A DNA stretch of 50,003 bases, from NCBI GenBank assembly GCA_903854195.1, contig CAINVO010000034.1:1-50003 (forward strand). Direction: 5' to 3'. Made by a program: the position numbers and the translations under genes. Positions 17,301-32,863 of this stretch are shown here, one piece after another. The DNA is from an uncultured bacterium (lineage in GTDB: Bacteria; Patescibacteriota; Minisyncoccia; Phycocordibacterales; CAINVO01). The notes under the pieces were generated by a model that did not search any database, had not been told where the DNA came from, and saw only the letters and a list, made by a program, of their open reading frames with translations. Each line of letters opens with the position of its first letter. Within the stretch, counting starts at the first letter, position 1.

Positions 17301-17671
17301 GTTTGTATATTTCCGGACATCCATTAGACAAATATCGTCAAATACTCGACAAGAGGGATGTCAATATTTCAAAAATAAAAGGTGAATCTGCTGGAGGATT
17401 TGGACCAGGAATAAAAGAAGATAGTGAAATAGTTATTGGAGTAATCATCGAAGAAGTACGCGAAATTCTAACAAAGAAAGATCAGTCACGTATGTTATTT
17501 ATCAGAATTGCTGATTTTACAGGATCAATCGAAGCGGTAGTTTTTCCACGAACATTTGCTGAATTTAAAAATACTTTTGTTACTGACCGATGTGTTGCAA
17601 TCAAAGGAAAAGTATCAGACCGCAATGGAGAAAAGAGTGTAATCGTAGAGAGTGTGAAAGTCTTGCAATAA
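14342..17671 (+). CDS. dnaE: DNA polymerase III alpha subunit
   Basis: PHP HLHTHSHYSLL, FERFLNP, PDIDMDF, HAAGVVI, YGFNKAHA, C-terminal OB fold. Confidence 0.98.
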   Translation: MSKFIHLHTHSHYSLLSALPKIPELVKAAKNDGMKALALTDNGNMYGAIEFYKECKKKEINPIIGVDFYVAARTRHDKEGRLDSRHSRIVMLAKDIEGYRSLIKLVTTSNLEGFYYKPRIDKELIEKHSAGLICISLSFSGDIAQAVKMDDFDKDKELIAWYKKIFKDDFYIEITHHPELEGHQEKMKKLVALARETDTQIVAAQDVYYLNPEDQKARDTLVSVQNDFGGGKASGAAGAGNTGGNGTRGGFGNDQADFSFINGKTADKYFIEEDGIPDAIENCEKIAQKCNLEITLGKWLFANFELPAGQTADQVLNDIVYAGIERRGIERTQVVLDRVEYELKVIRDKGYAPYFLTVADLLKYAHENGILTNIRGSVAGSMVTYLSYITNINPIEFMLPFERFLNPLRPSAPDIDMDFADNRRDEMIEYARKKYGRDKVAQIGTFGTMMARGSVRDVTRALGFPYALGDRLSKLIPMGSQGFPMTLEKALEITPELEKAYKQEKDAHEIIDMAKKIEGCARHISVHAAGVVISPVPLTDLVPLQYDTKGDEKIITQYDMYSVDENNVGLLKFDFLGIKNLSILANAIALVKKIEDVEVNLERVPIDDLKTFQMLAKGETEGVFQLNGSGMTRALVDLKPTSIHDINVMVALYRPGPMDTIEEYTARKHGKKRVTYYHPKMKKFLERTFGLLVYQDDLLYTALELAGYNWETVDKFRKAIGKKIPEEMAKQHEIFVKGCIEFSAMSKKDAETIWKLFEPFQGYGFNKAHAASYGLLAYQTGYMKANFPAIYMAAVLTADAGDVEKIGAFIAECKRMKIPVLPPDINESFRDFTVIKSETETFEETQPDGSIIIKPLEKIRFGLLTIKNFGESIGNVIIEERKRGGHFKSLEDFLNRIKDRNLNKKSLEALIKAGAMDAFGDRGVMLANSEDLLEYNKETHKAPANQDSLFASIQSADSNENLPSLRLKEAPNATPSEKLNWEKELLGLYISGHPLDKYRQILDKRDVNISKIKGESAGGFGPGIKEDSEIVIGVIIEEVREILTKKDQSRMLFIRIADFTGSIEAVVFPRTFAEFKNTFVTDRCVAIKGKVSDRNGEKSVIVESVKVLQ

Positions 17672-17783
17672 AAATAATAAAACACCTTTTAGAGGGGCTC
17701 ACGGAGGCCGACGGGCCGAGTGTGAAGGAAAAAGTCAGCAGACTTTTTACCTGTACCCTATAAAAGGTGTTTTATTATTTTTA
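17669..17783 (+). repeat. Foldback element family A, copy 1
   Basis: 23-bp perfect arms beginning at the dnaE TAA; core GGGGCTCACGGAGGCCGACGGGCCGAGTGTGAAGGAAAAAGTCAGCAGACTTTTTACCTGTACCC. Confidence 0.93.
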
Positions 17784-17794
17784 ATGTAGAACTA

Positions 17795-18959
17795 TTACGC
17801 TATCAAACCACGATTCTTCATGTTCTCAATTTTAAACTGAGCAGCAAGACTTTGAGAATTTGATGTTGAAACATTTCCAGCAAGTTGAGCTTTGCGATTC
17901 TTACGTGCAATGAATATGTAAGTCATGAATGCACTCCACATTAGAAGTCCTAGGATAAATAGACCAACTTTCAAGTTGAAACTAATACCAGTTGCGGGCA
18001 CTTGATTTAGAAAGACACCAGCGACAGGAGTACCATTAGTAGGTGTGATATCACGAGTGACAGTTACACCAGCAGTGTTAATGTTTCCAACATTTGTGTT
18101 ACAACTTCGAGAGATGGACTGACCATCTGTAGATGTGATAGTAACTGTTGCTGTTTTGTATCCAGCTGTTGCATACATACCTGTAATACTTTGACCATTT
18201 CCATAAAGGTTATCTGATCCTGTCCAAGAATAACTGAATGATCCGCTTCCACCTGATGCAGTTGCTGACCAAGTTACTGGAGTATTAATTCCACTTCCTG
18301 TGTAAGAAACTACACAAGATCCACTCATTGCTGAATAGTTTGTAGCATTATTTCCATAATATCCATTTGGATAGTAAACACCATTGTTGTAATAGTTAAC
18401 GGCTAACTGATTATTACTATTGTTTCCATTATTATTGTTATTGTTTGAAACTATTGTTGTATTGTTTGTACTCCCAGAAGTTGTTCTTTGTGGAATATAA
18501 ACGTAGTGACTTGCCTGAGGCATATAAGTGTAACCACCGCCTGTAGAATATCCACCATTGTATGAGTAACCATGTGAAGCACATGATGAACAAGAAGATC
18601 CTGAACTATATGAACTAGTTGGTACGTATGTATCGTAGTTGGAAGTTCCTGAATATGAAGGGGTGTATGTATGTGTATGTATCGTAATTTGATGTACCAG
18701 AACTTGAGGGAGTATATGTGTAAGTATCATAGTTGGATGTACCTGAACTTGATGGAGTGTAAGTATCATAGTTGGATGTACCTGTATCATATGTATCGTA
18801 GTTGGAAGTTCCAGTATCAAAAGTATCATAATTAGATGTACCGTAATCTACTGAATCCCCTCCACCAGCATAAACTTTTACAGACAACCCGACAAAAACA
18901 ATTGAAAACACCATTATTACTGTAGTGATTTGAATTATTTTATTTAGTATATTTTTCAT
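17795..18959 (-). CDS. Repeat-rich surface protein (about 387 aa) with signal peptide, Ig/PKD-like domain and VPATG-TM-basic tail; frameshifted at about 18665-18682
   Basis: ORFs 18615..18959 and 17795..18829 carry the same GTSNYDTY repeat in different frames, switching within ACATACACATACATACAC. Confidence 0.85.
18628..18843 (-). repeat. Six intragenic GTSNYDT(Y/F) peptide repeats
   Basis: Repeated GG(T/A)AC(A/T)TCNAA(C/T)TA(C/T)GATAC units with variable spacers. Confidence 0.9.
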
Positions 18960-19020
18960 AAATTTTTCGTTAATGTTTAACCGTCAAATAGAATATCTCT
19001 TAAAATTATTTATTGATTAC

Positions 19021-19049
19021 ATTATATACTATATATTAAATAAAGTCAA
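19021..19049 (-). promoter_or_regulatory. Sigma70-type promoter for the repeat surface protein
   Basis: TTGACT-17nt-TATAAT. Confidence 0.7.
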
Positions 19050-19065
19050 TAGTTATTTAATTAAA

Positions 19066-19096
19066 AAGGGCAGCCGTCGTATTGACGTCTGCCCTT
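19066..19096 (-). terminator. Intrinsic terminator
   Basis: AAGGGCAG..CGTC / GACG..CTGCCCTT with T-tract on minus strand. Confidence 0.75.
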
Positions 19097-19113
19097 CTTC
19101 CACATCCTTATAC

Positions 19114-19893
19114 TTACTGAATGTAGGTTGAGAACCATTCGGTTCCGCGATTCCGTGACACCCTGACCGATTTCCAGTCAGGCCCATACTTGTTGATTAC
19201 CGACTGAGGTAATGCGCAGTCTGCCATAATCCCACCATTGTGACCAACTAACGCCGTCACCATGCGAGGACCTTCACCCTCGATGTTCAATGTGAGTCTG
19301 GCAGTTGTGAAGCCGCCATCGTATTTTGGGGCCAAAGTCCCCGCATTGACCATTGTCATCCTCGGCTTGGCCACCAGTCTTTCGACATTGGGCCGTCCGG
19401 GGGGGAGAACTTCTGGTTGCTGGCGATCGTCATCAACCCCAACTCCGACGAACTGCCGGTCATCGATAACCTTCCTTTGGGGAAGATCGGCGATTGCTGA
19501 GTAGGCGTAGAGCCCTGCCCAAAGAACCAGCATCAAACCGAGAAGCACCAATACCAGCACTCCAAACCCTTCCAGTACTTGACGGAGCGTTGTCCGACGA
19601 GTCGTTGTTGTGGTTGTCCGTGTTGCCCGAGGGGCAGACGGTGGAGGTGTTCCTAGATCTGGCATCGTGTTGTGCACATGCACAACAACGGGTTGCTGAG
19701 CGGCTGCTGCTTGACCTTGCGGGCGAGGAGTAGCTGCTGCGGCTGGTGTTGCAGGAGTTCCGGCAGCGGGTGCTGTTGGAACGTTTGTTGCGGCGGCGGG
19801 AGCGTTTGCACGACCACCACCACGACGAGGATTATTTCCAGTTGCCATTATCATTTGCGCCGTTATCGGGCGACTTGGTTTGTGCTTTCGCAC
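19114..19893 (-). CDS. Single-pass membrane protein with Ala/Pro/Thr-rich N-terminus (start uncertain)
   Basis: Low-complexity N-terminus, one TM helix (GFGVLVLVLLGLMLVLWAGLYAY), visibly GC-rich; own promoter and terminator. Confidence 0.7.
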   Translation of the reverse strand: MRKHKPSRPITAQMIMATGNNPRRGGGRANAPAAATNVPTAPAAGTPATPAAAATPRPQGQAAAAQQPVVVHVHNTMPDLGTPPPSAPRATRTTTTTTRRTTLRQVLEGFGVLVLVLLGLMLVLWAGLYAYSAIADLPQRKVIDDRQFVGVGVDDDRQQPEVLPPGRPNVERLVAKPRMTMVNAGTLAPKYDGGFTTARLTLNIEGEGPRMVTALVGHNGGIMADCALPQSVINKYGPDWKSVRVSRNRGTEWFSTYIQ

Positions 19894-19965
19894 TTTGTTT
19901 TAAAGGAGCGTTAGTTGGTGACCCTATTGGTCGTACTTGTTATTTTCCAATCTAACTATGCTACT

Positions 19966-19993
19966 ATTATAGCACAATACATACTTTTGTCAA
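19966..19993 (-). promoter_or_regulatory. Consensus sigma70 promoter
   Basis: TTGACA-16nt-TATAAT with extended -10 TG. Confidence 0.8.
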
Positions 19994-20041
19994 GCGATTA
20001 TAAAGTGCTATGACTGTTACATTTGAGACCAATTTTACAGC

Positions 20042-20782
20042 CTATATTATAGGGCTTTTATCAACAAAGTCAGCTTGTACAACATAGCGATCCGTTTTTT
20101 TACCAAAACTATCACACGTCGAAAGTGTAAGCATAGGGCTAGTTTTATCAAAGTCTACCCAAGAATTATTCTCATTTTGCAAAACTACAGTTCGCACCTT
20201 ATATACATAATGTGTGCTACTTGAATAAACATCTATAATATCGCCGGCTGCAAGCTTATCTAATCCATTAAAAGCCTTGTAAGCTTTATTATTTACGATT
20301 TTAAAACCTGTACTATGTCCAAATAGAAACATATTTCCTGATCCTGGAGTGCCAGACCCTGGGTAATGAACAACGCCTTTTGAAAGCTCTTGGTCCAAGT
20401 AGTCAACATCAGTAGTGTTTGGGTTACGGACAACAATATCAGTTCCTGATTTAATAATCACAACCCGAAGAGGAATATCACCTACTTGTATTTTTTGGGC
20501 CTTATTCTGAGCATTATTTAATACATTTTGGTCTGTAGTTGTGGTAACAGAATTATCCCCTTTTATCACAGAAAGTGACCATGCGTTCAAATTATCAAAA
20601 AAGTTAGTGGAAGTATCTTCTTGAAACTCACTTGGAACAAACCCAATTATATACAGGACTGTAAAGCTTAAAATAAAAATCGGAATAAAGAAAAGTCCGA
20701 ATTGAAACTCTGGATATTTTAAAAGATGTTTCCAAATTGTCCTTATTTTACTATCCTTGTTGTTACTCATATTAGTTGACAT
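20042..20782 (-). CDS. Sortase family protein
   Basis: N-terminal TM; GNMFLFGHS (His), LTLSTC (Cys), DRYVV (Arg) catalytic triad pattern. Confidence 0.9.
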   Translation of the reverse strand: MSTNMSNNKDSKIRTIWKHLLKYPEFQFGLFFIPIFILSFTVLYIIGFVPSEFQEDTSTNFFDNLNAWSLSVIKGDNSVTTTTDQNVLNNAQNKAQKIQVGDIPLRVVIIKSGTDIVVRNPNTTDVDYLDQELSKGVVHYPGSGTPGSGNMFLFGHSTGFKIVNNKAYKAFNGLDKLAAGDIIDVYSSSTHYVYKVRTVVLQNENNSWVDFDKTSPMLTLSTCDSFGKKTDRYVVQADFVDKSPII

Positions 20783-20831
20783 TTTAACCGATTATGATAT
20801 AATACTGTGTAAATAATAACTATACAAATTT

Positions 20832-21968
20832 ATGGAAACTAACAAATCATCCGGCGCTCGCACATTAGTTCGTGCCATCATTATAGCAGGAATTCTCATC
20901 ATTCTCTTGGTGATGAGTTATGCTGTGATTAAAATCGTACCAAAAGCATTTTCAACTTTGGCTTCTGCCAATATTTCTCTAGGTACACTGTTTTCTCCAA
21001 AAGGCGCAGCGACTTCAACAAACGCAATTGCAACTAGCACAACATCAGTTAAAAATAATGGAATAAGTGGTCCTGGTGGATTTACAGTTATTTCAACAAG
21101 TACTCAGGCAACAACAACTACAAAAAATACTTCAAGCTACAACAATCAAAGTAGCAACACTTATGTAAACCATCCTGTAGTTCAGAACGGCTTACCAGAT
21201 CTTGCAATTGCAATAACTTCAAAGGGTATCCAAGATCCTACAACTGGAAAATTTATTGAGACCAATAACGTCCAGCCAAATGATCGTGTGATTATAAATT
21301 TTATTGTAACAAACCAAGGTTCTCGTGCATCAGGGTCATGGACTCTACGCGCTCAACTTCCAGCATATGATGCCGCTGATCGTCTAAAAACAATTAATGG
21401 TGTATCTATCCCAGCAGGGCAAGCTATTAGTGGCCAAGTATATTTTGACCGCGTGCAGATTGCTGGCAACAATAATGTCATTTTGACAATCGATCCAAAT
21501 GGCTCAATTTCAGAATCAGACAAATCAAACAATGTCGCTCAGGTTGTAATCACTTCAACAGGAACAAACACAGGTACTACTTATACTACTGGAACTATTA
21601 CAAACGGTTCCCTATCAGACCTAAGCGTAAATATTATTGCAACAGGTATTCTTGATTCAAGTAATAATTTTGTACAGACAACTCCTCGATCCGGTCAGCG
21701 CCCAGCTGTACGTTTCCAAGTGGTGAACAATGGCGGAAGTGATACTGGAACATGGTACTTCAACGCTTTCATGTCTGGTCAAACATCGTATACTTCCGAC
21801 CCTCAACCAACTCTAGGTGCTGGTCAAAAATTCATCTACACTATTGGATTCAACTCTGTAAATTACGGAACAAATGCAATCACAATAAACGTAGATCCTA
21901 CAAACATTGTTCGAGAATCAAATGAAGGAAATAACACCGCAAGTGCAAGTGTTTATGTTGGGAACTAG
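20832..21968 (+). CDS. Membrane-anchored protein with two CARDB-like Ig domains
   Basis: N-terminal TM, Thr/Ser linker, two repeats (PDL...F.V.N.G...DP...I.ES...NN). Confidence 0.85.
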   Translation: METNKSSGARTLVRAIIIAGILIILLVMSYAVIKIVPKAFSTLASANISLGTLFSPKGAATSTNAIATSTTSVKNNGISGPGGFTVISTSTQATTTTKNTSSYNNQSSNTYVNHPVVQNGLPDLAIAITSKGIQDPTTGKFIETNNVQPNDRVIINFIVTNQGSRASGSWTLRAQLPAYDAADRLKTINGVSIPAGQAISGQVYFDRVQIAGNNNVILTIDPNGSISESDKSNNVAQVVITSTGTNTGTTYTTGTITNGSLSDLSVNIIATGILDSSNNFVQTTPRSGQRPAVRFQVVNNGGSDTGTWYFNAFMSGQTSYTSDPQPTLGAGQKFIYTIGFNSVNYGTNAITINVDPTNIVRESNEGNNTASASVYVGN

Positions 21969-21972
21969 TTAG

Positions 21973-22094
21973 TATATAAAACACAAAAAACACCTTTTAT
22001 CGGGTACAGGTAAAAAGTCTGCTGACTTTTTCCTTCACTCTCGCGCGGTCGCGCTCCGAGGGCCCCTCTAAAAGGTGTTTTTGTATTTTATATA
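21973..22094 (-). repeat. Foldback element family A, copy 2 (core reversed)
   Basis: About 26-bp near-perfect arms; core reverse complement GGGGCCCTCGGAGCGCGACCGCGCGAGAGTGAAGGAAAAAGTCAGCAGACTTTTTACCTGTACCC. Confidence 0.93.
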
Positions 22095-22182
22095 ACTACC
22101 TAAGTAAAACCCACAGTTACTCAACGGTGTTGAACTTTCGGGGTGGTTTTTTATTTGAGAAAATTGAAAGTATTAATGATGT

Positions 22183-22301
22183 TAAATAAAATACTAAATG
22201 TTTCTTTTTGGAGACTTGCAAGGCTCGACGGAGCGAGCACGAGGAAAATCCTAGTAAGGATTTATCCGTACTCCAAAAAGAAACATTTAGTATTTTATTT
22301 A
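22183..22301 (+). repeat. Foldback element family A, divergent copy
   Basis: 31-bp perfect arms including the gyrB stop codon; core GCTC-GACG-GAGC and GGA-AAATCCT-AGTA-AGGATTT-A-TCC mirrors the family A fold. Confidence 0.85.
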
Positions 22302-24518
22302 GATATCAATACTTGCTAACTTTGCATTCGACTGAATAAATGACTTTCGTGAAGGCACGTCATTACCCATCAAAATATCGATAACCTTATCGGCTTCAGC
22401 ACCGTCAGCAATAGTAACGCGCTTCAATACTCTTTTTTCAATATCCATAGTTGTTTCTCCAAGCTCATCAGCGTTCATTTCTCCAAGACCTTTGTATCGT
22501 TGAACGTGAATCTTACTTTTCTTTGCTTCAGATGCAGCATCTTTTCCTTTAGCACCTTTTCCTTTTGCTGTTTTTTCAGAATCTTCTTCATTTACACTTT
22601 CTTCTGTTTCCTCATTTTCGTTTTGATTATCTGAGTCTTGATCACCTTCTTCAATTTCTTGTATTTCGTTTGCATCAACACCTTCTTGTTTAAAATATTT
22701 TGAAAGTTCTTCATCACTGTAGAAATAGTGTACGTCTTTTCCTTTCTTCACTTTGAAAAGTGGAGGTTGAGCAATATACACATGACCTGCGTCTATAAGT
22801 GGGCGGAAATATCTGTAGAAAAGTGTAAGTAGGAGTGTACGAATATGGGCGCCGTCAACATCGGCATCTGTAGCAATGATAAGTTTGTGGTATCGAAGCT
22901 TTGTAATATCAAATGTATCTCCAATAGCGGTACCGAAAGCAACCACTAGATTTTTAATTTGTTCTGATGCTAACATTTTATCAAGGCGGGCTCGCTCGAT
23001 GTTTAGAATCTTTCCTCTCAAAGGAAGCACGGCCTGAGTACGACGATCGCGTCCCATTTTCGCTGTACCTCCAGCAGAATCTCCCTCTACAATAAATAGC
23101 TCTGATTCCTCAGCTCTTTTACTCTGACAATCCGCAAGCTTTCCAGGAAGAGTCATGCCTTCAAGAGCTCCCTTTCTAAGAACTGAGTCCTTTGCGGCTT
23201 TTGCAGCCTTTCGGGCACGCATTGCAAGCAAACCTTTGTTTATGATTGCTTTAGCGTCCTCTGGATTTTCCTCGAAAAACTCTGCGAAGGCTTCGCCGAA
23301 AGCAGCAGATGTTGCACCTTGTGCCTCCGTAGATCCAAGCTTAGCTTTTGTTTGTCCTTCAAACTGAATATCAGGCATCTTTACAGAAACCACAGCCACA
23401 AGACCTTCCTGCACATCATCACCAGTCAAAGTATCTTCATTATCTTTGATAATGTTATTTTTCTTGGCGTATGAGTTAATGGTACGAGTCAGAGCTGTTT
23501 TAAAACCGGCAATGTGAGTACCACCTTCACTGTTGTAAGTGTTGTTAGCGAAAGCCACAATCTTTGGGTTGATATCATCTACGTACTGTAGAGCAACCTC
23601 AACACCAACGTCTTTTGCGTGATTAGCTTCTTCACCATTACTACCTGTTGCGAGAACTTCTTTTTCTACATAGAAAATATTTTTATGAATTGGCTTTTGA
23701 GTGTGATTGTAAAAGGCAACAAGTGATCGAAGACCTCCTTCAAAATAAAAAGTCATTTCTGGCACATCAATGCACTCCTCTTGGAAACTATCCTTTAAGT
23801 AGAAAGAAGATTCATCTAGCAAACTTTTTGCAAGATGCTTTTGATTTTTTTCATCAAGACCTCTTGCATCTAGAATATTTATTTGCAAACCTTTTACAAG
23901 ATATGCTTGCTGGCGCAAATGAGCAATTATTTTTGCCCACTCAAAAACGATACCTTCCTTGAAGATTTCTGCATCGGCTTTAAACAAAACGATTGACCCA
24001 TGAGCTTTTGTTTTACCAACCTGTTTTACTTTGTATTGAGGTATACCAATCTTATATTCCTGGGCATAGATTCCACCATCTTTATGAACCGTAACTTTTG
24101 TATGAACTGACAGCGCATTTACAACTGAAGCTCCCACTCCATGCAAACCTCCAGAGACTTTGTATCCATCACCACCGAACTTTCCTCCGGCGTGAAGTGT
24201 AGTCATAATAGTTTCAAGAGCTGAAACTTTTGTTTTTGAATGCATGTCAACAGGAATTCCTCGTCCGTTGTCTACTACTCTAATGTATCCATCAGGAAGA
24301 AGTGCAACTTCAATACGGTTACAAAAACCACCCATGGCTTCATCACGTGAGTTGTCGAATATTTCCCAGATCAAATGATGCAGACCATCCGGTCCTGTTG
24401 TACCAATATACATTCCAGGTCGCTTTCTTACAGGCTCTAGACCTTCAAGAACTGTAATAGAATCTGCTCCGTAACTACTAGCTTTTTTTATTGTTTTTTC
24501 GTCTTCTTTTTTTGCCAT
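22299..24518 (-). CDS. gyrB: DNA gyrase subunit B
   Basis: LEGLEPVRKRPGMYIG, LHAGGKF, EGDSAGG, PLRGKILN, DADVDG, RYKGLGEM; start reset to ATG 24518. Confidence 0.95.
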   Translation of the reverse strand: MAKKEDEKTIKKASSYGADSITVLEGLEPVRKRPGMYIGTTGPDGLHHLIWEIFDNSRDEAMGGFCNRIEVALLPDGYIRVVDNGRGIPVDMHSKTKVSALETIMTTLHAGGKFGGDGYKVSGGLHGVGASVVNALSVHTKVTVHKDGGIYAQEYKIGIPQYKVKQVGKTKAHGSIVLFKADAEIFKEGIVFEWAKIIAHLRQQAYLVKGLQINILDARGLDEKNQKHLAKSLLDESSFYLKDSFQEECIDVPEMTFYFEGGLRSLVAFYNHTQKPIHKNIFYVEKEVLATGSNGEEANHAKDVGVEVALQYVDDINPKIVAFANNTYNSEGGTHIAGFKTALTRTINSYAKKNNIIKDNEDTLTGDDVQEGLVAVVSVKMPDIQFEGQTKAKLGSTEAQGATSAAFGEAFAEFFEENPEDAKAIINKGLLAMRARKAAKAAKDSVLRKGALEGMTLPGKLADCQSKRAEESELFIVEGDSAGGTAKMGRDRRTQAVLPLRGKILNIERARLDKMLASEQIKNLVVAFGTAIGDTFDITKLRYHKLIIATDADVDGAHIRTLLLTLFYRYFRPLIDAGHVYIAQPPLFKVKKGKDVHYFYSDEELSKYFKQEGVDANEIQEIEEGDQDSDNQNENEETEESVNEEDSEKTAKGKGAKGKDAASEAKKSKIHVQRYKGLGEMNADELGETTMDIEKRVLKRVTIADGAEADKVIDILMGNDVPSRKSFIQSNAKLASIDI

Positions 24519-24633
24519 AAAAATAAAAAGCATTAAGGCTTTATTGGGCAAAGTATACCAAATTGAGCCTAAAACTGCTAGGAAAGAAGGGTTGCGATTT
24601 AGCTAAAATTGGGGTATAATAGCCTCTATAAAT

Positions 24634-25938: not shown

Positions 25939-25991
25939 AATATTATAAATTAGGCTGTTATTTAAAGATTAAATAAAATAAACATAAAAAA

Positions 25992-26837
25992 ATGAACAAC
26001 GATCAAAACCCTAACCCGCCACACCACACAGAACCTCACCAACATGTTCGTGCACCTTTTGAATGGCAAAAATATTTAATTGCCTTTCTTATAACAGCTA
26101 CTATTTTTTTAAGTGCAGTTTATTTTAATAACTACTTTGATAATAAAAGGGTTGAAAATATCAAGTCAATTCAAGATCAGATTTCGCTAGATATTCTTTC
26201 CTCTGAGACCCAATTTGATTTGCTCAAAGAAGCAACATGTAAAAGTGTGGACGACTCCGTATTATCTCAAGAGCTAAACACTTTGGCCAGCAAGCTCTCT
26301 TACATGGAAGAAAATGACAGTACAAATACTGACCTACCTCAACTTAAAAAATATTACTCTTTACTCGAAATCAAAGATTTTCTACTTATGAAACAGCTAG
26401 GACAGAGATGTCCTTTCAAACCGGTTTCTATACTATATTTCTATTCTCAAAAATCAGACTGTCCTAACTGTGAAAAAATGGCCTATGTTCTAACCTACCT
26501 ACGTCAACAGTATCCTGAAGTGCGTATATACTCATTTGACTATAACCTAAACTTATCCGCAGTTGATACAATGAAAAAGGTTTATTCTCTAAACGATACA
26601 GAACTCCCAGCAGTCATTGTTGGAGATAATGTATATCATGGATTCATAAGTGTAGACGACATGAGAAAAGCTGTACCTGAACTAAAGAGCTTAGATAAGA
26701 AACATGCAGCTGATGCCGCTGCAGCAGCAAAAGAAGCCGCACAACAAGCATCTAGCACTCAAAGCACATCTCAATCATCAACATCCAAAAATAGTACATC
26801 TAACACAAACTCCACATCTACTGGCTCTAGTAATTAA
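25992..26837 (+). CDS. Membrane-anchored protein with thioredoxin-like CxxC domain
   Basis: N-terminal TM; ILYFYS..DCPNC..., ELPAVIV; Ser/Thr tail. Confidence 0.7.
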   Translation: MNNDQNPNPPHHTEPHQHVRAPFEWQKYLIAFLITATIFLSAVYFNNYFDNKRVENIKSIQDQISLDILSSETQFDLLKEATCKSVDDSVLSQELNTLASKLSYMEENDSTNTDLPQLKKYYSLLEIKDFLLMKQLGQRCPFKPVSILYFYSQKSDCPNCEKMAYVLTYLRQQYPEVRIYSFDYNLNLSAVDTMKKVYSLNDTELPAVIVGDNVYHGFISVDDMRKAVPELKSLDKKHAADAAAAAKEAAQQASSTQSTSQSSTSKNSTSNTNSTSTGSSN

Positions 26838-27277
26838 TATTTGTAAAACTTCCCAGCATTATAATTATTTAAAATTTTCTGACTTGGAGGAAAAATTGGT
26901 GATGGTAATTTATCCAACGGAAACCATTTCCATTCAGTTATTTCATCTGGCTCCATTACTTTTGGCTCATATGGATAATTTTCACAAAATAAACCGACAG
27001 TAACAAAGTGAGCATCTGGAACAATGTCGTTTGTAAGACTTACAACCTTTAAGTTGTCGATGGAAATTTCTACCCCAGTTTCTTCTAGAACTTCTCTCTT
27101 TGCACCCTCTTCAAAACTTTCTCCGAAGCGCAATTTACCACCCGGCATAGTCCATGTACCTTCACCGTGCAGCTCACTGTCTGCTTTTAACGGATCAGCA
27201 TGTCTTTTTCCAAGTAAAAGTTTCCCATCCTTTAAGACCATCACCCCGAATCCGTTACCTATCTTTAGATTCTCCAT
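26834..27277 (-). CDS. Nudix hydrolase
   Basis: PGGKLRFGESFEEGAKREVLEETG; start reset to ATG 27277 because the track start lies inside the tRNA. Confidence 0.92.
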   Translation of the reverse strand: MENLKIGNGFGVMVLKDGKLLLGKRHADPLKADSELHGEGTWTMPGGKLRFGESFEEGAKREVLEETGVEISIDNLKVVSLTNDIVPDAHFVTVGLFCENYPYEPKVMEPDEITEWKWFPLDKLPSPIFPPSQKILNNYNAGKFYKY

Positions 27278-27280
27278 AAA

Positions 27281-27356
27281 TGGAGCCACCTCTCAGATTT
27301 GAACTGAGGACCTACTGTTTACAAAACAGTTGCTCTACCAACTGAGCTAAGGTGGC
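27281..27356 (-). tRNA. tRNA-Thr(UGU) with encoded CCA
   Basis: GCCACCT/AGGTGGC acceptor stem, D-arm GCTC/GAGC, anticodon loop TTTGTAA, T-loop TTCAAAT, 3' CCA. Confidence 0.97.
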
Positions 27357-27456
27357 TTTAATTTTTGACTATCATACCATGTAAATTTACACGAATCGGC
27401 CTAACACTTTCCCCTCTTTTTCATATTGCCGCTACAGAAATATATACTATTTGGAA

Positions 27457-27873
27457 TTATTTGTCCAACATTCCAGCGACTTTTTGGTCAAGATTATCTA
27501 TATTTCTCTGAGCTTCTTTATGCTCCTCAATATGTTTAAGAAAGAAAGAAACTGAACCCCTATTTGTTGGAATATCTGTACGACAAACAACCTTCATGAA
27601 TTTTTTCCACCATTTATTTAAGTTTATTATTGATCTCACAAAAATACCCTCAACCGTTGTAAGAATATTATGACCAATATTATGCCATGAACCCGCAGTT
27701 AACAAATGTGAAAATTTATTTATAAATCCAGAAAATGAACCTAGCCATTTATCTGTCTTATTAAAAGTAACAGAGACAACTTTTCTACCTGTCTGTAGTT
27801 CAGAAATCTTGTTTCCAAGAAGAGCCACTAGACCGACAAGCGACAAGGACAATGTAATGTATAGATAAATCAT
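27457..27873 (-). CDS. Hypothetical membrane-anchored protein
   Basis: 138-aa ORF with N-terminal hydrophobic helix. Confidence 0.7.
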   Translation of the reverse strand: MIYLYITLSLSLVGLVALLGNKISELQTGRKVVSVTFNKTDKWLGSFSGFINKFSHLLTAGSWHNIGHNILTTVEGIFVRSIINLNKWWKKFMKVVCRTDIPTNRGSVSFFLKHIEEHKEAQRNIDNLDQKVAGMLDK

Positions 27874-27881
27874 AAGAGTAA

Positions 27882-27908
27882 GCGCGCGAGGGCAAAGCCC
27901 TCGCGCGC
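27882..27908. other. Very GC-rich perfect hairpin after tsf
   Basis: GCGCGCGAGGGC-AAA-GCCCTCGCGCGC; no strong U-tract. Confidence 0.8.
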
Positions 27909-27914
27909 AGTTAA

Positions 27915-28505
27915 TTATTTCTCCAAAACCCCGAACCGCACAAACTTTGCAACCTCGATCTTTTCACCAAACTTCTGAATAGCGTTCTCAATTAATTGAC
28001 TAATTGTGAGATCTGGATTTTTGATAAACGGCTGTTCAAGTAAAATCTTATCCTGAAAATATGAAGCCAACTTCCCTTCTAAAATCTTTGCTTTCATTTC
28101 TTCTGGTTTTCCTTCAACTTCCTTTTCAAAAACTTCAGTAGCTTTTTGTTTGGCTTCCTCACTTATCTCATCTTTACTAAGATATGTAGGACAAGCCGCT
28201 GAAATATGCATGGCAATATCATAAGCAAGTTTTTTAAACTCTTCATTCTTTGAAACAAAGTCTGTCTCAGAAACAAGCTCAACCATGGCACCAATGGTGT
28301 CATTTGAGTGAATATAAGCAGCTACAGTACCAGCTCCTAGAGTACGGTCTGATTTCTTTGAGGCAATGTCTGATCCTTTCTTTCTAAGTAGGATTAAAGC
28401 CTTCTCCTTGTCACCACCAGCCTCTTCTAGAGCTTTTTTACACTGCATAACAGAAATACCTGTCATATCTCGTAATTCCTTAATTTGTTCAGTAGTTATA
28501 GCCAT
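27915..28505 (-). CDS. tsf: Elongation factor Ts (short form)
   Basis: IKELRDMTG..MQCKKAL, ETDFV; downstream of rpsB. Confidence 0.97.
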   Translation of the reverse strand: MAITTEQIKELRDMTGISVMQCKKALEEAGGDKEKALILLRKKGSDIASKKSDRTLGAGTVAAYIHSNDTIGAMVELVSETDFVSKNEEFKKLAYDIAMHISAACPTYLSKDEISEEAKQKATEVFEKEVEGKPEEMKAKILEGKLASYFQDKILLEQPFIKNPDLTISQLIENAIQKFGEKIEVAKFVRFGVLEK

Positions 28506-28630
28506 ATGATTAAATTTATATAAATTATATGTAAATATTTTCTTATCCTTATAATATAACCGCCATTCTCATATTATTGGACCTATAGGATATATAATAA
28601 CAAAAAACGACAAATGTCGCCTTGTAGTTA

Positions 28631-29341
28631 TTAACCTATTTTCTTTGCGCCTTTGTATGCCTCTACAAACTTCTCCATGAAGAAAGTTACGCTTGAAACA
28701 GAAGAGTCGTTTCCAACAATAGCGTAGTCAACTTTTTTAATATCACAATCAGATCCACAAAGAGCAATTACGGGCACACCCATCTGTTTTGCCTCTGCTA
28801 CAGCGATAGCTTCTTTTTTAGAATCAATAACAAACATTGCAGCTGGCATTTTTGTCATAGAAGAAAGTCCTGAGAAAAGTACATCTAAACGAACAATTTC
28901 TCGGTCGATCAAAAGTCTTTCTTTTTTAGTATATTTTACAAGTTCACCCTTTTCTTTCTGAGAAACAAGGTCATGAAGCTTTTCAACTCGCTTACGAATA
29001 CTGTCGAAATTAGTTAGAGATCCTCCAACCCATCGTCCAGCAACAAAAGGCATATCTAGTGATTCACCTGCCTTTCGAGCAATAGCCTGAGCTTCGCTCT
29101 TTCCACCAACAATCAAAATTTGTTTGTTTTCTGAAGCAAGCTTCTTTACAAATTCAAGAGCTCCGTTTAATGACTCTTCTGTTTTTTCTAGATTAAAAAT
29201 TTCTATCTTGTTTTTAGCACCGAAAATAAAAGGCTTTGTAGATGGGTGACGGCGTGACTTAATAAAGCCAAAATGAGCTCCAGCCTTAAAAAGGGAGTCC
29301 ATCAGTTCGCCTGTTTTCTTTACTGTTGTTTCATTTGTCAT
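28631..29341 (-). CDS. rpsB: 30S ribosomal protein S2
   Basis: AGAHFG, RWVGGSLTN, AVAEA, GND; start reset to ATG 29341. Confidence 0.97.
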   Translation of the reverse strand: MTNETTVKKTGELMDSLFKAGAHFGFIKSRRHPSTKPFIFGAKNKIEIFNLEKTEESLNGALEFVKKLASENKQILIVGGKSEAQAIARKAGESLDMPFVAGRWVGGSLTNFDSIRKRVEKLHDLVSQKEKGELVKYTKKERLLIDREIVRLDVLFSGLSSMTKMPAAMFVIDSKKEAIAVAEAKQMGVPVIALCGSDCDIKKVDYAIVGNDSSVSSVTFFMEKFVEAYKGAKKIG

Positions 29342-29533
29342 GTGTTCGGATATAGTAGCAAAAAGGGTGATTTTATGCAATACCAGGCTAAATATGGCTA
29401 AAACAATCCCTGCCAATATGTTTTCTCACTAAAGCACATAGACAGGGATTGTTTATCCAATTTGCCTCCTATTGCATGATCAACCTTTCAAAAATGTGAC
29501 GGTTGGCATATAATCCACGTAGTCAAACAGTAT

Positions 29534-29767
29534 ATGAAAAATATAAAAAAAGGAATTTACAGAAGCTTTAAAAGTCCAGAAATGACCTATGAGGTTCTTG
29601 GTGTCGCTTCGCACAGCGAAAACCCAGAGCAAAAGCTCGTGGTTTACAAAGCACTTTATGGCGAGAAAGAACTATGGGTTCGCCCTGCGGAAATGTTCTT
29701 GGAAATTATTGACCGTCCGGAACACAACTACAAAGGTCCCAGATTCCTTATGATTGAAGAAAAATAA
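29534..29767 (+). CDS. DUF1653-like small protein
   Basis: Y.VLGVA.HSE...VVYKALYG...WVRP.EMF...PRF pattern. Confidence 0.85.
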   Translation: MKNIKKGIYRSFKSPEMTYEVLGVASHSENPEQKLVVYKALYGEKELWVRPAEMFLEIIDRPEHNYKGPRFLMIEEK

Positions 29768-29780
29768 TAAAACTAGGGGA

Positions 29781-29848
29781 AAAAATCCTTATATTCTTTT
29801 TGCGAGTTAGCGGAACGCTTTAGCAAAAAAAAAAATATAAGGGTTTTT
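29781..29848 (+). repeat. Foldback element family B, copy 2 (variant core)
   Basis: Imperfect arms of about 23 bp around GAGTTAGCGGAACGCTTTA between convergent DUF1653 gene and prfA. Confidence 0.75.
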
Positions 29849-30815
29849 ATTTTTCCAAACCAGCCTGGTACTGCTCCAAACTCTGAATAATAGCATCCAT
29901 TTTACCCAAGAAAATACCTTCAATATTGTGCCAAGATTCTTTTATACGGTGGTCAGTCACGCGATCCTGAAGAATGTTATACGTACGGATCTTCTCTGAT
30001 CTATCCCCTGTTCCTATTTGAGCCTTTCTGTTGGCAGCAAATTTTTTGGCATCTTCTTCTTGTTTCATTGCTTCAAGTTTAGCCAAAAGAATAGACATTG
30101 CCTTTTCACGATTTTTAAGCTGACTGCGCTCACTAGTTGAACGAACATCAATACCTGTTGGCTTGTGAATAAGACGTACAGCTGTTTCAACTTTATTAAC
30201 ATTTTGACCACCAGCACCTCCAGATCTAGAGAATTCCATTTCAATATCTACAGGATTAATTTCTATACTGATTTTTTTACGAATAGGAAGAATGGCAACT
30301 GATGCAGTAGATGTGTGTACGCGTCCCATTTTTTCTGTTGCAGGTACTCGCTGTATACGATGCACTCCTGTTTCAAAGCGGAGTAATCTGTAAACATCAA
30401 GACCGTGTATTTCAATGGAGGCTTCTTTATAGCCGCCGACCGCGCTTTCTGACTCGGAGACAATGTGACTAGTCCAACCGCGGGAGGCGGCAAAAGCTCG
30501 ATACATGTCAGCTAGCTCTCGAGCAAAAAGTGAAGCTTCTTCCCCTCCGGCACCGGCACGAACTTCAAGAATAATTTCTGATGGAAACTCCTCTTCTTTT
30601 TCTTCAGCCTTCAAGATATCCTGCATTTTTTCCAACAATGTCTTTTGTTGTAGATCTAGGTCAACAAGTTCGGCGTCTGCCATTTCTTTAAAAGCAGGAT
30701 CACTTTCAGCCATAATCAAAACTTCTCCGCGTTGTCGACTGAGTTTTTCATACTCACCTGCCCAATAATTAGTCTTGGGATTTTGTTTAAATTGTTCTAG
30801 GTTTATTTCTGACAT
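29847..30815 (-). CDS. prfA: Peptide chain release factor 1
   Basis: PAT anticodon motif (VPATE), [18 protein letters not shown]. Confidence 0.96.
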
Positions 30816-30896
30816 TTTATAAATTTCTTATTTAACACACACTTGGGATTTTTACTATCACTTATTAGCTCTTACATTCTACCAATTTTTCCAAAC

Positions 30897-30927
30897 AAAA
30901 AAACCACCCAGGATGTGGTGGCTTTTT
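30897..30927 (-). terminator. Hairpin terminator after rpmE
   Basis: CCAC stem flanked by A and T tracts. Confidence 0.55.
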
Positions 30928-30937
30928 GTGAGCTTAG

Positions 30938-31183
30938 CTATTTTTCTGAACTAGTGTCTGAAACTGCTTTTGCTTTTGGTTTTGCACTTGACTGACGAGC
31001 CTTAAACTTTTCGACACGTCCAGCTGTATCTAGTGATTTCTCAAGTCCTGTGTAGAAAGGATGGCAATTACTGCAGATTTCAATATTTATCTTCTCTTTT
31101 GTACTACCAATAGTAAACACATGCCCACAAGCACATGTGGAGGTAGAATCTGCATAAAACTTTGGATGTATGTCTTTTTTCAT
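30938..31183 (-). CDS. rpmE: 50S ribosomal protein L31 (Zn-binding type)
   Basis: MKKDIHP, Cx[17 protein letters not shown]. Confidence 0.97.
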
Positions 31184-31243
31184 ATTTTTATAGGTTTTTA
31201 GAGTATAACAGAAAGTTCTAAAAAGGCAACTCCCTCTTATTTT

Positions 31244-32668
31244 TTACTGATTACCAGCCAAAATATCAATATTTCCTTGAAGCGCCGTTGCCTTTGCAAT
31301 AACCTGATCACCATAAAATTTATTACTACTATTACATGAACTTCCTGAATAATACTTACAAGCGGCGTTTCGTTCAGCTGTATAGCCACCATTTCCAGCC
31401 CCAAGATCAGATAAATACAGGGCAGAAGCCATGAAAGCATCTTTTGGATTCCAAGGATCTGGCTCTGATGAAATACCGAGGGAGGTCTTGAGACGTGAAA
31501 TATTCAGAGCCCAAGTAGAAGCGATAAACTGGGCCGGACCCATAGCCCCACCATAACCAACACTGAAAGGACAAGATACGCGAGTTTTGTAAGGGTCTCT
31601 GCCAAGAGCACCTGTAATGGCAAGAAACGGTTGAACATCTCGACTTGGCTTCATGATGTTTTTAACAGCCACACCTGTGCTAATTTTTATACCACTTCCA
31701 TCTGTAGCATTTGTCAGATAACATGCACCCACGTTTGAGCCAAGGTTACTTTCTTGTTGAATAACTGCGAGTAGAAATGCGGGTCGGACACCAGTCGCGG
31801 CAGAAGCAGCTTTTGCATAAACAACAGCATCTCCGAATTGAATTGAAGGTGCATCACGAAGCGAAAACAAAGCTGTTCGAATTTTTGAAGCCTGTGACTG
31901 TTTGTCTGCAATTGTAGATTGATAATTTTTCTGTTGAGTTTTGTTTAAACTTAAAAGCTTCTTTTTTTGGTTCTGAGCTGCCGTGATGTTTTGCTTTTCT
32001 GTTTCTACGTTCACTTCAATAGCCTGTTCCTGCACTCGCTTATCACTAAGTTGCTGCTTTGTTTGAACATTCTGATCTTTTGAAGATTTTATATCGCCAA
32101 GAATTGATCTTAATGACTGATTTATTGAAGCAAAGGAGTCAAGATCAATAAAAAACTTAGACAGATCTCCTCCACTAAGAAAAGCCTCCGCTAAAGAAAA
32201 ATTTTCGAGTTGGTTTGCCTGATTTATGATACGTCCAAGAGAACCTTGATCATGCCCTATCTGATCTGTAAGGGCATTAATGGTGTTATTAGTTACAGCA
32301 ATATTTTTACTAAGATTATCTATAGCAAGTTTATGAGCTTTGATTTTTAACTGAGCCTGTTTTACCTGTAGATCCAAAATTGAAATATCTCTACTGATTG
32401 ATGAAGCTTGATTTTGTGTAGTCGTAAGCTGACTAGTAACATCTGTGATTTGATTTTCCAAATCAGTCAAAGCTGTTTGACAAGCAATTTTTTGAGCTGG
32501 GGTATCACACTGAACACTCCCATTTGATGCCGCAGCTGATTGAATTTGTACTGCTGTCTGCGCGAAAGCTGGTTGCAAAAAAGAAACCGGATTAAGCACC
32601 AGTGAGAGTAATATTATTGAGATTGAAAATGATAGAAAAATGCTCCGTTTAAATAACGCGATAGGCAT
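31244..32668 (-). CDS. Secreted coiled-coil protein with C-terminal lytic transglycosylase-like domain
   Basis: Signal peptide, long Gln-rich coiled coil, QES catalytic motif, GAMGPAQF, DPWNP.DA; start reset to ATG 32668. Confidence 0.85.
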   Translation of the reverse strand: MPIALFKRSIFLSFSISIILLSLVLNPVSFLQPAFAQTAVQIQSAAASNGSVQCDTPAQKIACQTALTDLENQITDVTSQLTTTQNQASSISRDISILDLQVKQAQLKIKAHKLAIDNLSKNIAVTNNTINALTDQIGHDQGSLGRIINQANQLENFSLAEAFLSGGDLSKFFIDLDSFASINQSLRSILGDIKSSKDQNVQTKQQLSDKRVQEQAIEVNVETEKQNITAAQNQKKKLLSLNKTQQKNYQSTIADKQSQASKIRTALFSLRDAPSIQFGDAVVYAKAASAATGVRPAFLLAVIQQESNLGSNVGACYLTNATDGSGIKISTGVAVKNIMKPSRDVQPFLAITGALGRDPYKTRVSCPFSVGYGGAMGPAQFIASTWALNISRLKTSLGISSEPDPWNPKDAFMASALYLSDLGAGNGGYTAERNAACKYYSGSSCNSSNKFYGDQVIAKATALQGNIDILAGNQ

Positions 32669-32727
32669 AGCCGATATTATACCAATTTTTAAAGAGGAAA
32701 AACAGCTGCAGAACAATGTGTAAACAC

Positions 32728-32857
32728 AATTTAAAAACAAAATAAAAACACACCTTAGGGGGGCTCTCGGAGCGCGACGGCGCGAGAGTGAAGGAAAAAG
32801 TCAACAGACTTTTTACCTGTACCCGATAAAGTGTGTTTTTATTTTTGTTTTTAAATT
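32728..32857 (+). repeat. Foldback element family A, copy 3
   Basis: About 29-bp near-perfect arms; core GGGGCTCTCGGAGCGCGACGGCGCGAGAGTGAAGGAAAAAGTCAACAGACTTTTTACCTGTACCC. Confidence 0.93.
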
Positions 32858-32863
32858 AACACA

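Follow-up and report, generated by a model that had tools for sequence, protein, structure and literature searches.

The window analyzed here, by which we mean the whole stretch of 50,003 nucleotides, carries four copies of a repeat beside dnaE, gyrB, rplY (L25/TL5) and a gene encoding a CARDB-domain protein. An earlier note on this DNA had described three close copies and one divergent copy; 4 of 4 sit where it placed them, and all were recovered by a covariance model in a search of the genome from which the window comes (the source genome), with E-values from 1e-21 to 7e-24. The features are as follows.

17666..17786, plus strand: whole hairpin of copy 1, between dnaE (plus) and a convergent minus-strand gene
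17669-17671 and 17795: neighbors of copy 1, the stop codon of dnaE (plus) and the end of the convergent gene (minus)
17693-17759, sense on the plus strand: core of copy 1, a three-way junction
17698-17724, P2; A17725, J2/3; 17726-17752, P3; A17749, bulged A; 17753-17755, joiner GTA: parts of the copy 1 core
17679-17773, plus strand: covariance-model span of copy 1 (108.6 bits, E 6.8e-24; whole-hairpin MFE -56.0 kcal/mol)
~21974..22092, minus strand: whole hairpin of copy 2, downstream of the CARDB-domain gene
~22001-22067, sense on the minus strand: core of copy 2, antisense to the CARDB-domain gene
21987-22081, minus strand: covariance-model span of copy 2 (101.2 bits; whole-hairpin MFE -51.7 kcal/mol)
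22183..22301, plus strand: whole hairpin of copy 4, the divergent subtype, which at its right end shares 3 nt with the gyrB stop codon
~22210-22274, sense on the plus strand: core of copy 4, antisense to gyrB
22196-22288, plus strand: covariance-model span of copy 4 (97.0 bits; whole-hairpin MFE -57.4 kcal/mol)
32728..32857, plus strand: whole hairpin of copy 3, downstream of rplY (minus) and upstream of the next minus-strand gene
~32759-32825, sense on the plus strand: core of copy 3, antisense to both neighboring genes
32745-32839, plus strand: covariance-model span of copy 3 (98.3 bits; whole-hairpin MFE -55.7 kcal/mol)

The core, about 67 nt long, is a three-way junction with conserved unpaired bases: a GNA/GA internal loop, a GACG loop, an AGCA loop, a bulged A and a GTR joiner. 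The parts described earlier are seen in the copies, namely, hairpin 1 with a GAC(G/C) loop on a covarying stem, hairpin 2 with a 4-nt loop (AGCA, AACA or AGTA) and, in its 3′ strand, a bulged A, and a closing helix followed by GTA. The orientations given then, sense after dnaE and antisense after the CARDB gene, gyrB and rplY, also agree with ours. A 25-nt core pattern had three matches against 0.00 expected, which excludes chance. Minimum-energy folds place the three-way junction atop a stem of 22 to 35 bp in 7 of 7 copies folded, and in the MFE fold of copy 3 all 130 nt are paired except the core loops. In an alignment of 37 rows from 25 genomes, compensatory (double) changes occur in 34 of 36 pairs and 96.5% of cells are paired; this level of covariation was reached by none of 500 shuffles, and slid partners pair in only 44 to 53% of cells. 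Eight copies from the source genome alone show covariation in 26 of the 36 pairs. Several unpaired bases are nearly invariant (GA, 34/36 and 36/36; J2/3 A, 35/36; mismatch T, 35/36), while pairing is almost all Watson-Crick (98.1% in core helices, with wobble in less than 1% of core pairs). The structured family is real, and its structure is conserved over its sequence, as the earlier note had proposed from far fewer copies.

The element extends well beyond the window. A covariance-model search found 11 copies dispersed on seven contigs of the source genome, of which seven (on contigs C4, C29, C21 [two copies], C25, C12 and C40) had been missed before. Among genomes of the same order, 29 of 61 have matches, with up to 34 or more per genome, whereas only 2 of 150 other genomes sampled across the phylum have any. 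When the window is scanned with Rfam (release 15), a tRNA is the sole match at the gathering score. Relaxing the threshold to E up to 10 for copy 1 brings up, at best, a long-hairpin miRNA model (23.2 bits against a gathering score of 90), and among 20 diverse loci no family comes up repeatedly at the elements. We found no description of the branched core in the literature searched. The core family matches no catalogued family, so the earlier impression that it was not a known one holds.

Copies in tandem-gene contexts are almost evenly divided, with 33 sense and 29 antisense to both genes; the core is without overall strand preference, and its orientation is independent of the adjacent gene, as first observed at the four copies in the window. 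Two genomes show a bias. In G035, 20 of 24 copies share the direction of the downstream gene and lie just upstream of promoter-like boxes, an arrangement left unexplained by the two-layer model that we favor below; in G001, 17 of 24 share the direction of the upstream gene. As for the strand itself, G-T combinations outnumber A-C combinations about 2:1 (68 versus 36 over arms, P1 and core helices; 19 versus 10 in core helices), so that wobble pairs favor the sense strand only mildly, and the sense strand folds more stably than the antisense by 0.6 to 10.4 kcal/mol in 9 of 9 copies folded.

Might the core be a functional structured RNA, that is, a protein-binding or active module at the tip of 3′-UTR or terminator hairpins, or one with its own promoter, with new copies arising by duplication? 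Such a role would suit the unpaired bases that stay invariant over 25 genomes, a core conserved above neighboring genes, the sense-strand excess of G-T over A-C (68 versus 36 in all helices), the steadier sense fold in all nine copies, and the biases in G035 and G001. However, with 29 antisense against 33 sense copies in tandem contexts, half of the copies would go without sense transcription unless they had their own promoter, and none is conserved at the copies. Wobble at less than 1% of core pairs is unusually low for RNA under structural selection, and the patchy presence and rapid turnover between sister species also speak against this role, which we regard as possible but unlikely.

That the hairpins contain a small self-cleaving ribozyme of a new kind, or some other RNA that is catalytic or binds a ligand, strikes us as highly improbable. 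Known small ribozymes are likewise compact, with conserved junction bases, and likewise multicopy and linked to mobile elements; the ~67-nt three-way junction, with invariant bases in its junctions and internal loops, is similar in each of these respects, including its mobile-like behavior. Since no known ribozyme family is matched, it would have to be a new one. Nevertheless, models of the hammerhead, twister, pistol and hatchet families gave no match even with E relaxed to 5 to 10, covariation offers no support for a pseudoknot or tertiary contact (the strongest nonhelical signal fits subtype linkage), and orientation relative to transcription is random.

The outer stems resemble terminators. 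The source genome holds 357 plain hairpins with stems of 10 to 25 bp, and the 45 longest among those listed mostly have, as read by eye, a left arm rich in A and a right arm rich in T. The outer stem of the element shares this build of A tract, G+C clamp and T tract, and in a feature test it proved to be a G+C-clamped stem with A and T tracts directly behind a stop codon. Where both neighbors were called, 43 of 109 copies (39%) lie between convergent genes, against a genome baseline of 16%, and 15 lie between divergent genes. Of 145 gene 3′ ends that face a copy, 47 come as close to it as 10 nt or less and 29 run into it, the arms reaching into coding ends by at most ~24 nt and mostly by less than 10. 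Given this build, the abutment on stop codons and the plain hairpins at corresponding sites of a sister species (below), the long variable stems are probably local bidirectional terminators, and the core alone is probably the add-on. The earlier note had set the element against a cis terminator, a contrast not supported by stems of terminator build that abut or overlap stop codons. It had also taken the conservation of structure over sequence as a sign of selection on a single-stranded fold; because the long stems are probably terminators, the compensatory changes in them are weak evidence for such selection.

Arm sequences are largely free of the core. In G020 and G001, copies with cores of 97% identity or more agree at just 50 to 56% of the innermost 14 bases of their arms. 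Five G020 copies nevertheless have 18 nt of arm in common, and therefore some arm sequence travels; the type-A arms in the source genome are also recognizably alike.

Comparison of G020 with its sister species G061, for which 7 of the 22 fetched G020 copies were examined, gives a picture of rapid turnover. At two of the seven G020 element places, G061 has a plain terminator-like hairpin; at two, an element of a different core subtype; and at one, an element of the same subtype with unrelated arms and a core of ~92% identity (counted from printed sequences), compared with 71 to 82% for the flanking genes. One further place is rearranged. The last one is empty; its homologous flanks are 30 nt apart, compared with 143 nt in G020. 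The empty site has a 21-nt spacer and no hairpin whatever; therefore, the arms there came with the insertion or were made by it. Congeneric G001 has no element at the sites after dnaE and rplY. The search for empty orthologous sites that had been suggested earlier yielded one clean case, in G061. No match to the element appeared in 41 metagenomic gyrB loci, and no insertion polymorphism was seen inside one species.

The empty site invites the idea that only the core and a short inner stem insert and that the arms are made in place, flanking DNA being copied in inverted form by fold-back or template switching, with mismatches erased in the same way. Ten of 13 arm bases match the native 21-nt spacer in position (chance, by a rough estimate, ~0.06); arms that are perfect yet differ among copies with near-identical cores, and pairing that is Watson-Crick only, also suit this idea. 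However, the match comes from one site and is of marginal significance, 2 of 7 orthologous places already have a plain hairpin that lacks the core, the overlap of arms with coding ends is small (no more than ~24 nt and mostly below 10), and the orthologous same-subtype pair has arms unrelated to each other. We consider such self-made palindromes decidedly unlikely.

Evidence of conventional transposition is confined to one genome, G028. There, the inner arms are identical in 19 copies, which also have an 18-bp terminal inverted repeat in common, with 7-bp flanking repeats that are perfect in 8 of 19 and match at 6 of 7 positions in 3 of 19, while a control never exceeded 4 of 7. The same inverted repeat bounds an element of ~970 bp (C20:3941-4911) that encodes a 266-aa DDE transposase (Pfam DDE_Tnp_1_3, E 1.7e-23), for which the best NCBIfam match is IS982 (E 7.8e-30, below the IS982 cutoff). 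Hairpin and core in G028 are shown by these features to be cargo of an IS982-like miniature transposon, which multiplied by cut-and-paste with 7-bp duplications.

Elsewhere the signs are different. Among 102 copies outside G028, no 7-mer direct repeat was found at the hairpin ends, the distribution equaling that of the control, and conserved terminal inverted repeats common to a genome's copies, or an autonomous partner with the same ends, were found only in G028. No mobilizing protein was found among the families tested: 4 of 61 genomes, the source genome not among them, have an IS982-like transposase; Y1 transposase (PF01797) is not associated with the element (18 of 29 genomes with it, 19 of 32 without); and reverse transcriptase occurs in 14 of 29 and 13 of 32, respectively. 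IS200/IS605-derived PATEs would go with TnpA (Y1), TnpB or both in the genome and with the absence of a target duplication. Such an absence is seen here, which agrees, but searches for Y1 in G000, G001 and G020 and for TnpB in five genomes found neither. An ordinary MITE throughout, with arms as traveling, transposase-bound terminal inverted repeats and differences among copies due to old divergence, holds true in G028 and would account for the 18 nt of arm in common among five G020 copies and for the similar type-A arms of the source genome. For the family as a whole we think it very unlikely, given the 102 copies without target duplication, arms of ~50% identity where cores are at least 97% identical, and the result that no known transposase family among those tested occurs in the source genome or tracks the element.

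In its turnover and lack of target duplication, the core behaves as a non-autonomous cassette in a hairpin loop. The earlier proposal of a mobile or DNA-level element is upheld by the rapid turnover and the use of either orientation, but not in its opposition to a terminator. We tentatively favor, with a probability of roughly 45%, a two-layer model of a terminator stem and a mobile ~67-nt core cassette moved at the DNA level. The outer stem of 20 to 35 bp would be the local bidirectional intrinsic-terminator hairpin of its intergenic spot, made up of a 5′ arm rich in A, a short G+C clamp and a 3′ arm rich in T, its sequence drifting while pairing stays. The conserved cassette, which besides the ~67 nt includes a few inner-stem base pairs, would lie in the apical loop of this hairpin and, being non-autonomous, would move or be copied among hairpin loops at the DNA level, taking either orientation and leaving no target duplication. 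It would be gained and lost between close species, and subtypes would replace each other at one site. We infer that the cassette spreads while the hairpin is single-stranded, possibly through template switching or gene conversion with both endpoints in the A/T tracts common to terminators, or alternatively through a candidate protein that reads the junction fold.

The core is conserved above its flanking genes, and its unpaired bases are invariant across families. Such conservation exceeds what a purely selfish repeat would require and points to a function or a conserved partner. It is conceivable, though we hold it doubtful, that the core is a new kind of mobile nucleic acid module, a folded three-way junction without its own transposase that homes to the apical loops of terminators by way of A/T-tract template switching, an unrecognized host protein or catalysis by the core itself, and that is kept by a function at the tip. 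If so, a structured parasite or symbiont would be living in the terminators of these reduced genomes, and new terminators would arise when a core is lost.

The genomes of Patescibacteria are among the smallest and most streamlined known. Even so, this 100- to 140-bp element persists in them at up to 34 or more copies per 600 to 900 kb, with a core kept more faithfully than neighboring protein genes. A selfish core would have spread into hairpin loops without duplications, a route that other bacterial repeats are not known to use; a functional core would mark an RNA-protein or DNA-protein system specific to one uncultured order. On the practical side, such repeats mark gene ends and break assemblies (contigs end within copies of the element), and the covariance model could annotate them.

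Among known systems, the REP/BIME and REPIN elements of Proteobacteria, mobilized by RAYT, a Y1 HUH transposase, are similarly short, multicopy intergenic palindromes, situated mostly behind genes or between convergent ones, that form hairpins and may act as terminators. REP elements are defined by a conserved stem sequence with a 5′ GTAG-type motif; here, the stem sequence is free and the branched core conserved, and Y1 transposase neither tracks the element nor was found in the source genome. Hairpin-forming bacterial MITEs, such as Correia/NEMIS in Neisseria, ERIC/IRU in enterobacteria and RUP and BOX in pneumococci, are likewise non-autonomous intergenic repeats of 100 to 150 bp with inverted ends that vary among close relatives. 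By its inverted repeats and 7-bp duplications, the lineage in G028 qualifies as a true MITE. In the other genomes, the ends are not conserved and lack flanking duplications, and a conserved center with free ends is the reverse architecture. Elements that home to hairpins include IS1397 and ISKpn1 (into REP loops), class C group II introns (at terminators) and IS110/IS1111 (into palindromes). Their target, too, is a hairpin or terminator and not a sequence; these elements are autonomous with their own enzyme, whereas the cassette encodes nothing and no partner was found for it.

TIGR-Tas units, present in CPR bacteria among others, have variable but always palindromic stems, a likeness to our element; they are arrayed in tandem next to a Tas gene, and their loops contain box C/D motifs together with variable spacers (PMC12045711). 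Our element is instead dispersed on seven contigs, with a conserved loop and no C/D boxes. Finally, bidirectional Rho-independent terminators resemble the outer stem in build, place behind stop codons and enrichment between convergent genes. The 15 of 109 copies between divergent genes lie where a terminator is not expected, and the loop of the element is a conserved ~67-nt three-way junction, which no terminator needs.

An earlier note, made from the sequence of the window alone, had reported a branched repeat in three close copies and one divergent copy, and all four are present:

17666-17786, plus strand: copy 1
21974-22092, minus strand: copy 2
22183-22301, plus strand: copy 4, divergent
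32728-32857, plus strand: copy 3

A 25-nt pattern taken from the second hairpin has three matches in the window against 0.00 expected, and the minimum-energy folds of seven copies each consist of a near-perfect stem of 22 to 35 bp capped by a three-way junction. The junction core of copy 1 is built as follows:

17693-17759, plus strand: core, opening with helix P1 of 4 bp
helix P2: 5 bp with a constant T mismatch, 3 nt facing GA in an internal loop, then 4 bp closed by the loop GACG
joiner between P2 and P3: a single A
helix P3: 3 bp, an A bulged on the 3' side, 8 bp and the loop AGCA
final joiner: GTA, leading back to P1

The four copies adjoin dnaE, a CARDB-domain gene, gyrB and rplY; the core is sense after dnaE and antisense after the other three, as the note had it. 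The 90-nt spacer separating copies 2 and 4 (22093-22182) has its own A-run, G+C segment and T-run and is possibly a third, plain terminator, which would place three hairpin-type signals between two convergent genes.

A first covariance model, built from four close copies, recovered the divergent copy and others, and a second, built from eight, found 11 copies in the 814-kb genome to which the window belongs (G000). Matches occur in 29 of the 61 genomes of the same order, at 1 to at least 34 copies per genome (the number scored in each being capped), while only 2 of 150 other genomes, sampled evenly from the rest of the phylum, matched under stricter filters. Blastn against phage and plasmid collections returned no match to the element. 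Among the eight copies from the window's own genome, 97.2% of helix cells are paired and both sides have changed in 26 of 36 pairs; in an alignment of 37 rows from 25 genomes, one row being an antisense match, the corresponding values are 96.5% and 34 of 36. The level observed in the larger alignment was reached by 0 of 500 shuffles, with slid partners pairing in 44 to 53%; both alignments were fitted to the model, so that structure is favoured, and the margin is nonetheless very large. Unpaired positions hardly vary from genome to genome: the GA after P2b (34/36 and 36/36), the joining A (35/36), the mismatch T (35/36), the P3 loop (A 32/36, G 28/36, C 25/36, A 34/36) and the G (34/36) and T (32/36) of the final joiner. 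A pseudoknot or tertiary contact was looked for by covariation and rejected: the strongest signal outside the helices is an added base pair in the stem, and the next, which connects the central GNA-loop base with the second P3 pair, may reflect subtype linkage. Searches of Rfam with copy 1 and with 20 diverse loci found no family at the gathering score or at permissive thresholds, and a full-text literature search, supplements aside, turned up no account of a repeat like this one in Patescibacteria. The earlier note had recognised no known family and read the base changes as selection on a fold; since Rfam holds no match and covariation is strong in the larger alignment, the family is real and uncatalogued, a widespread structured repeat of one Patescibacteria order. 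At two loci, L034 (G033:C2) and L036 (G050:C1), copies adjoin rRNA genes, and the 23S rRNA at L034 has two sub-threshold matches to the group I intron model (39.4 and 26.5 bits; gathering score 50).

The stems vary far more than the core. In G020, another genome of the order, and in G001, a congener, copies with a core identity of 97% or more have 50 to 56% of the 14 core-proximal arm bases in common. The window's own genome contains 357 plain hairpins (stems 10 to 25 bp, loops 3 to 10 nt), and the 45 longest listed, judged by reading, mostly run from an A-rich left arm through a short G+C clamp to a T-rich right arm; the arms of the element look like these ordinary terminators. Loops longer than 8 nt hide the elements from the terminator scanner. 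A perfect 12-bp G+C-rich palindrome between two minus-strand genes of the window (27882-27908; 11 G-C pairs, 3-nt loop) contrasts sharply with the A/T-rich hairpins that this genome usually has. We examined the context of 121 copies from 27 genomes; the 109 with both neighbours called lie between convergent (43), tandem (51) or divergent (15) genes, against a baseline of 16% convergent, 69% tandem and 15% divergent among 765 gene pairs of the window's own genome. Gene 3' ends that face a copy are often close to it: for 47 of 145 the distance to the hairpin is at most 10 nt, and 29 extend into it. A promoter scan of 17400-33100 found 45 sites against 42.9 in shuffles and thus gives no evidence for a dedicated promoter.

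For 7 of the 22 G020 copies retrieved, we looked at the same place in the sister species, G061, where the genes are 69 to 87% identical:

L137 and L149: G061 has, immediately after the shared stop codon, a plain terminator hairpin
L134 and L150: G061 has an element of a different core subtype
L139: G061 has the same rare subtype, with a core about 92% identical (own count) and arms that share nothing
L133: G061 is empty, its homologous flanks being separated by 30 nt that hold no hairpin, compared with 143 nt in G020
L144: G061 is rearranged

The variability of the arms, their terminator-like build and placement, and this comparison together changed our view of the stems, and our best reading is that the element is a conserved three-way-junction cassette living in the loops of terminator hairpins. 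At the empty site, L133, 10 of 13 arm bases agree with the spacer native to G061, which keeps alive the idea that arms are copied from the flank. The cassette reading leaves this match unexplained, as it does two features of G020: five copies have 18 nt of arm in common before diverging, and another subgroup carries a conserved motif outside its variable arms.

The congener G001 has no element at the places after dnaE and rplY, and none was found within 2.5 kb of gyrB at 41 metagenomic loci (protein identity at most 73%, none of the same species). Contigs from four DNA runs over 16800-23200 include long listed pieces that match the window exactly and end within the repeats; none skips an element, and no insertion polymorphism was seen. 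The sequencing runs listed for the stretch include none of RNA. Four nucleotides at 18664, within a minus-strand open frame (17795-18829), are absent from contigs of two DNA runs from different studies, which reflects strain variation or a mistake in assembly. The nearest core is usually from the same genome (mean best identity 0.82 to 0.99 within against 0.77 to 0.89 between genomes), and some core subtypes are common to G000 and G001 or, more rarely, extend across families. In G035, also of this order, truncated or chimeric core fragments lie in left flanks directly beside full copies (L176, L177, L183). One ends at the P2 loop and another fuses the halves of two P3 subtypes at the loop, which suggests recombination between copies at their loops.

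Orientation is free overall, with 33 copies sense and 29 antisense to the genes in tandem contexts. Nearly all pairs are of the Watson-Crick type. Core helices comprise 2180 Watson-Crick cells, 19 G-T, 10 A-C and 13 other; arms comprise 1487, 46, 23 and 65, respectively. G-T cells outnumber A-C cells by roughly 2:1, a hint of greater importance for the sense strand; we place little weight on it, since the rows are related and the model favours G-U. Given the free orientation and the scarcity of wobble pairs, we lean towards an element acting at the DNA level. A bias by replication strand was rejected, on the weak evidence of one 680-kb G035 contig whose replication origin was not located: the 24 listed copies occupy both strands, and two of them, neighbours separated by 177 nt, face opposite ways. 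Among the G035 copies (C7; L019, L171-L188), 20 of 24 are co-oriented with the downstream gene, about 12 of 24 precede, by 9 to 14 nt, a -35-like box that is followed 16 to 18 nt later by a -10 box (by eye), and recurring motifs occupy the left flanks. This subfamily adjoins promoters rather than terminators, a pattern of orientation and promoters that the cassette-in-terminator reading leaves unexplained.

Our search for a mobilising partner covered IS982-like transposases, Y1 transposases, TnpB and reverse transcriptases; among these four families no mobiliser was identified, and none tracks the element. Y1 transposase, present in 37 of 61 genomes, shows no association with the element (18 of 29 genomes that have it, 19 of 32 that lack it) and was not found in G000, G001 or G020, and TnpB was found in 0 of 5 genomes. 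Reverse transcriptase occurs in 27 of 61 genomes (14 of 29 with the element, 13 of 32 without) and was not found in G035, G003, G014 or G049, which hold 15 to 34 copies each. Reverse-transcriptase genes of 340 to 370 aa have a copy no more than about 1 kb away in three genomes:

G001:C1:55540-56404 (L162): copy directly behind the gene's stop codon
G020:C2:77037-78640 (L151): gene and copy
G044:C16:102639-104158 (L030): gene and copy

Such proximity is commoner than copy density predicts, but the presence of the gene does not follow that of the family as a whole. Two reverse-transcriptase genes occur in G000 itself, neither near a copy (G000:C32:932-1564, in a 506-aa frame, and G000:C39:21-545, 250 aa).

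One genome of the order, G028, does have a transposon route. All 19 of its copies have identical inner arms with a conserved 18-bp terminal inverted repeat outside them, and at fixed offsets bounding an element of 140 to 141 bp, 8 of 19 have perfect 7-bp direct repeats and 3 of 19 match at 6 of 7 positions, while a control offset never exceeds 4 of 7. A 14-nt motif of the inverted repeat occurs 55 times in G028, against once for its reversed control, and also bounds units with other content (24, about 160, 190, 240 and 305 bp). Since these contents are unrelated, a single set of ends serves several MITE families in G028. The units so bounded (L118-L127) include an IS982-like insertion sequence of about 970 bp, with no junction core inside:

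G028:C20:3941-4911 (L118): its 266-aa product is a DDE transposase that matches Pfam DDE_Tnp_1_3 at E 1.7e-23; the best NCBIfam match is to IS982, whose 104 bits fall short of the 130-bit cut-off

In G028, then, hairpin and core became the cargo of a miniature IS982-type transposon. Arms travel in this genome; in the others they are mostly local and resemble terminators. The route is not general, since 4 of 61 genomes carry the transposase, with G000, G001, G020 and G035 not among them; among 102 copies outside G028, direct repeats at the hairpin ends do not exceed control.

Several known systems invite comparison. TIGR-Tas stem-loop arrays have variable palindromic stems in common with the element; however, as described (PMC12045711), TIGR units are tandem and have C/D boxes and variable loop content, unlike the element, and a TIGR-Tas array was rejected on those grounds. 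Membership of the REP/BIME or MITE class was also rejected, as the ends are not conserved and there is neither duplication nor a RAYT or other transposase partner. In how it works, the element nevertheless comes closest to intergenic palindromes of the REP/BIME and MITE types, and its stems most resemble bidirectional terminators.
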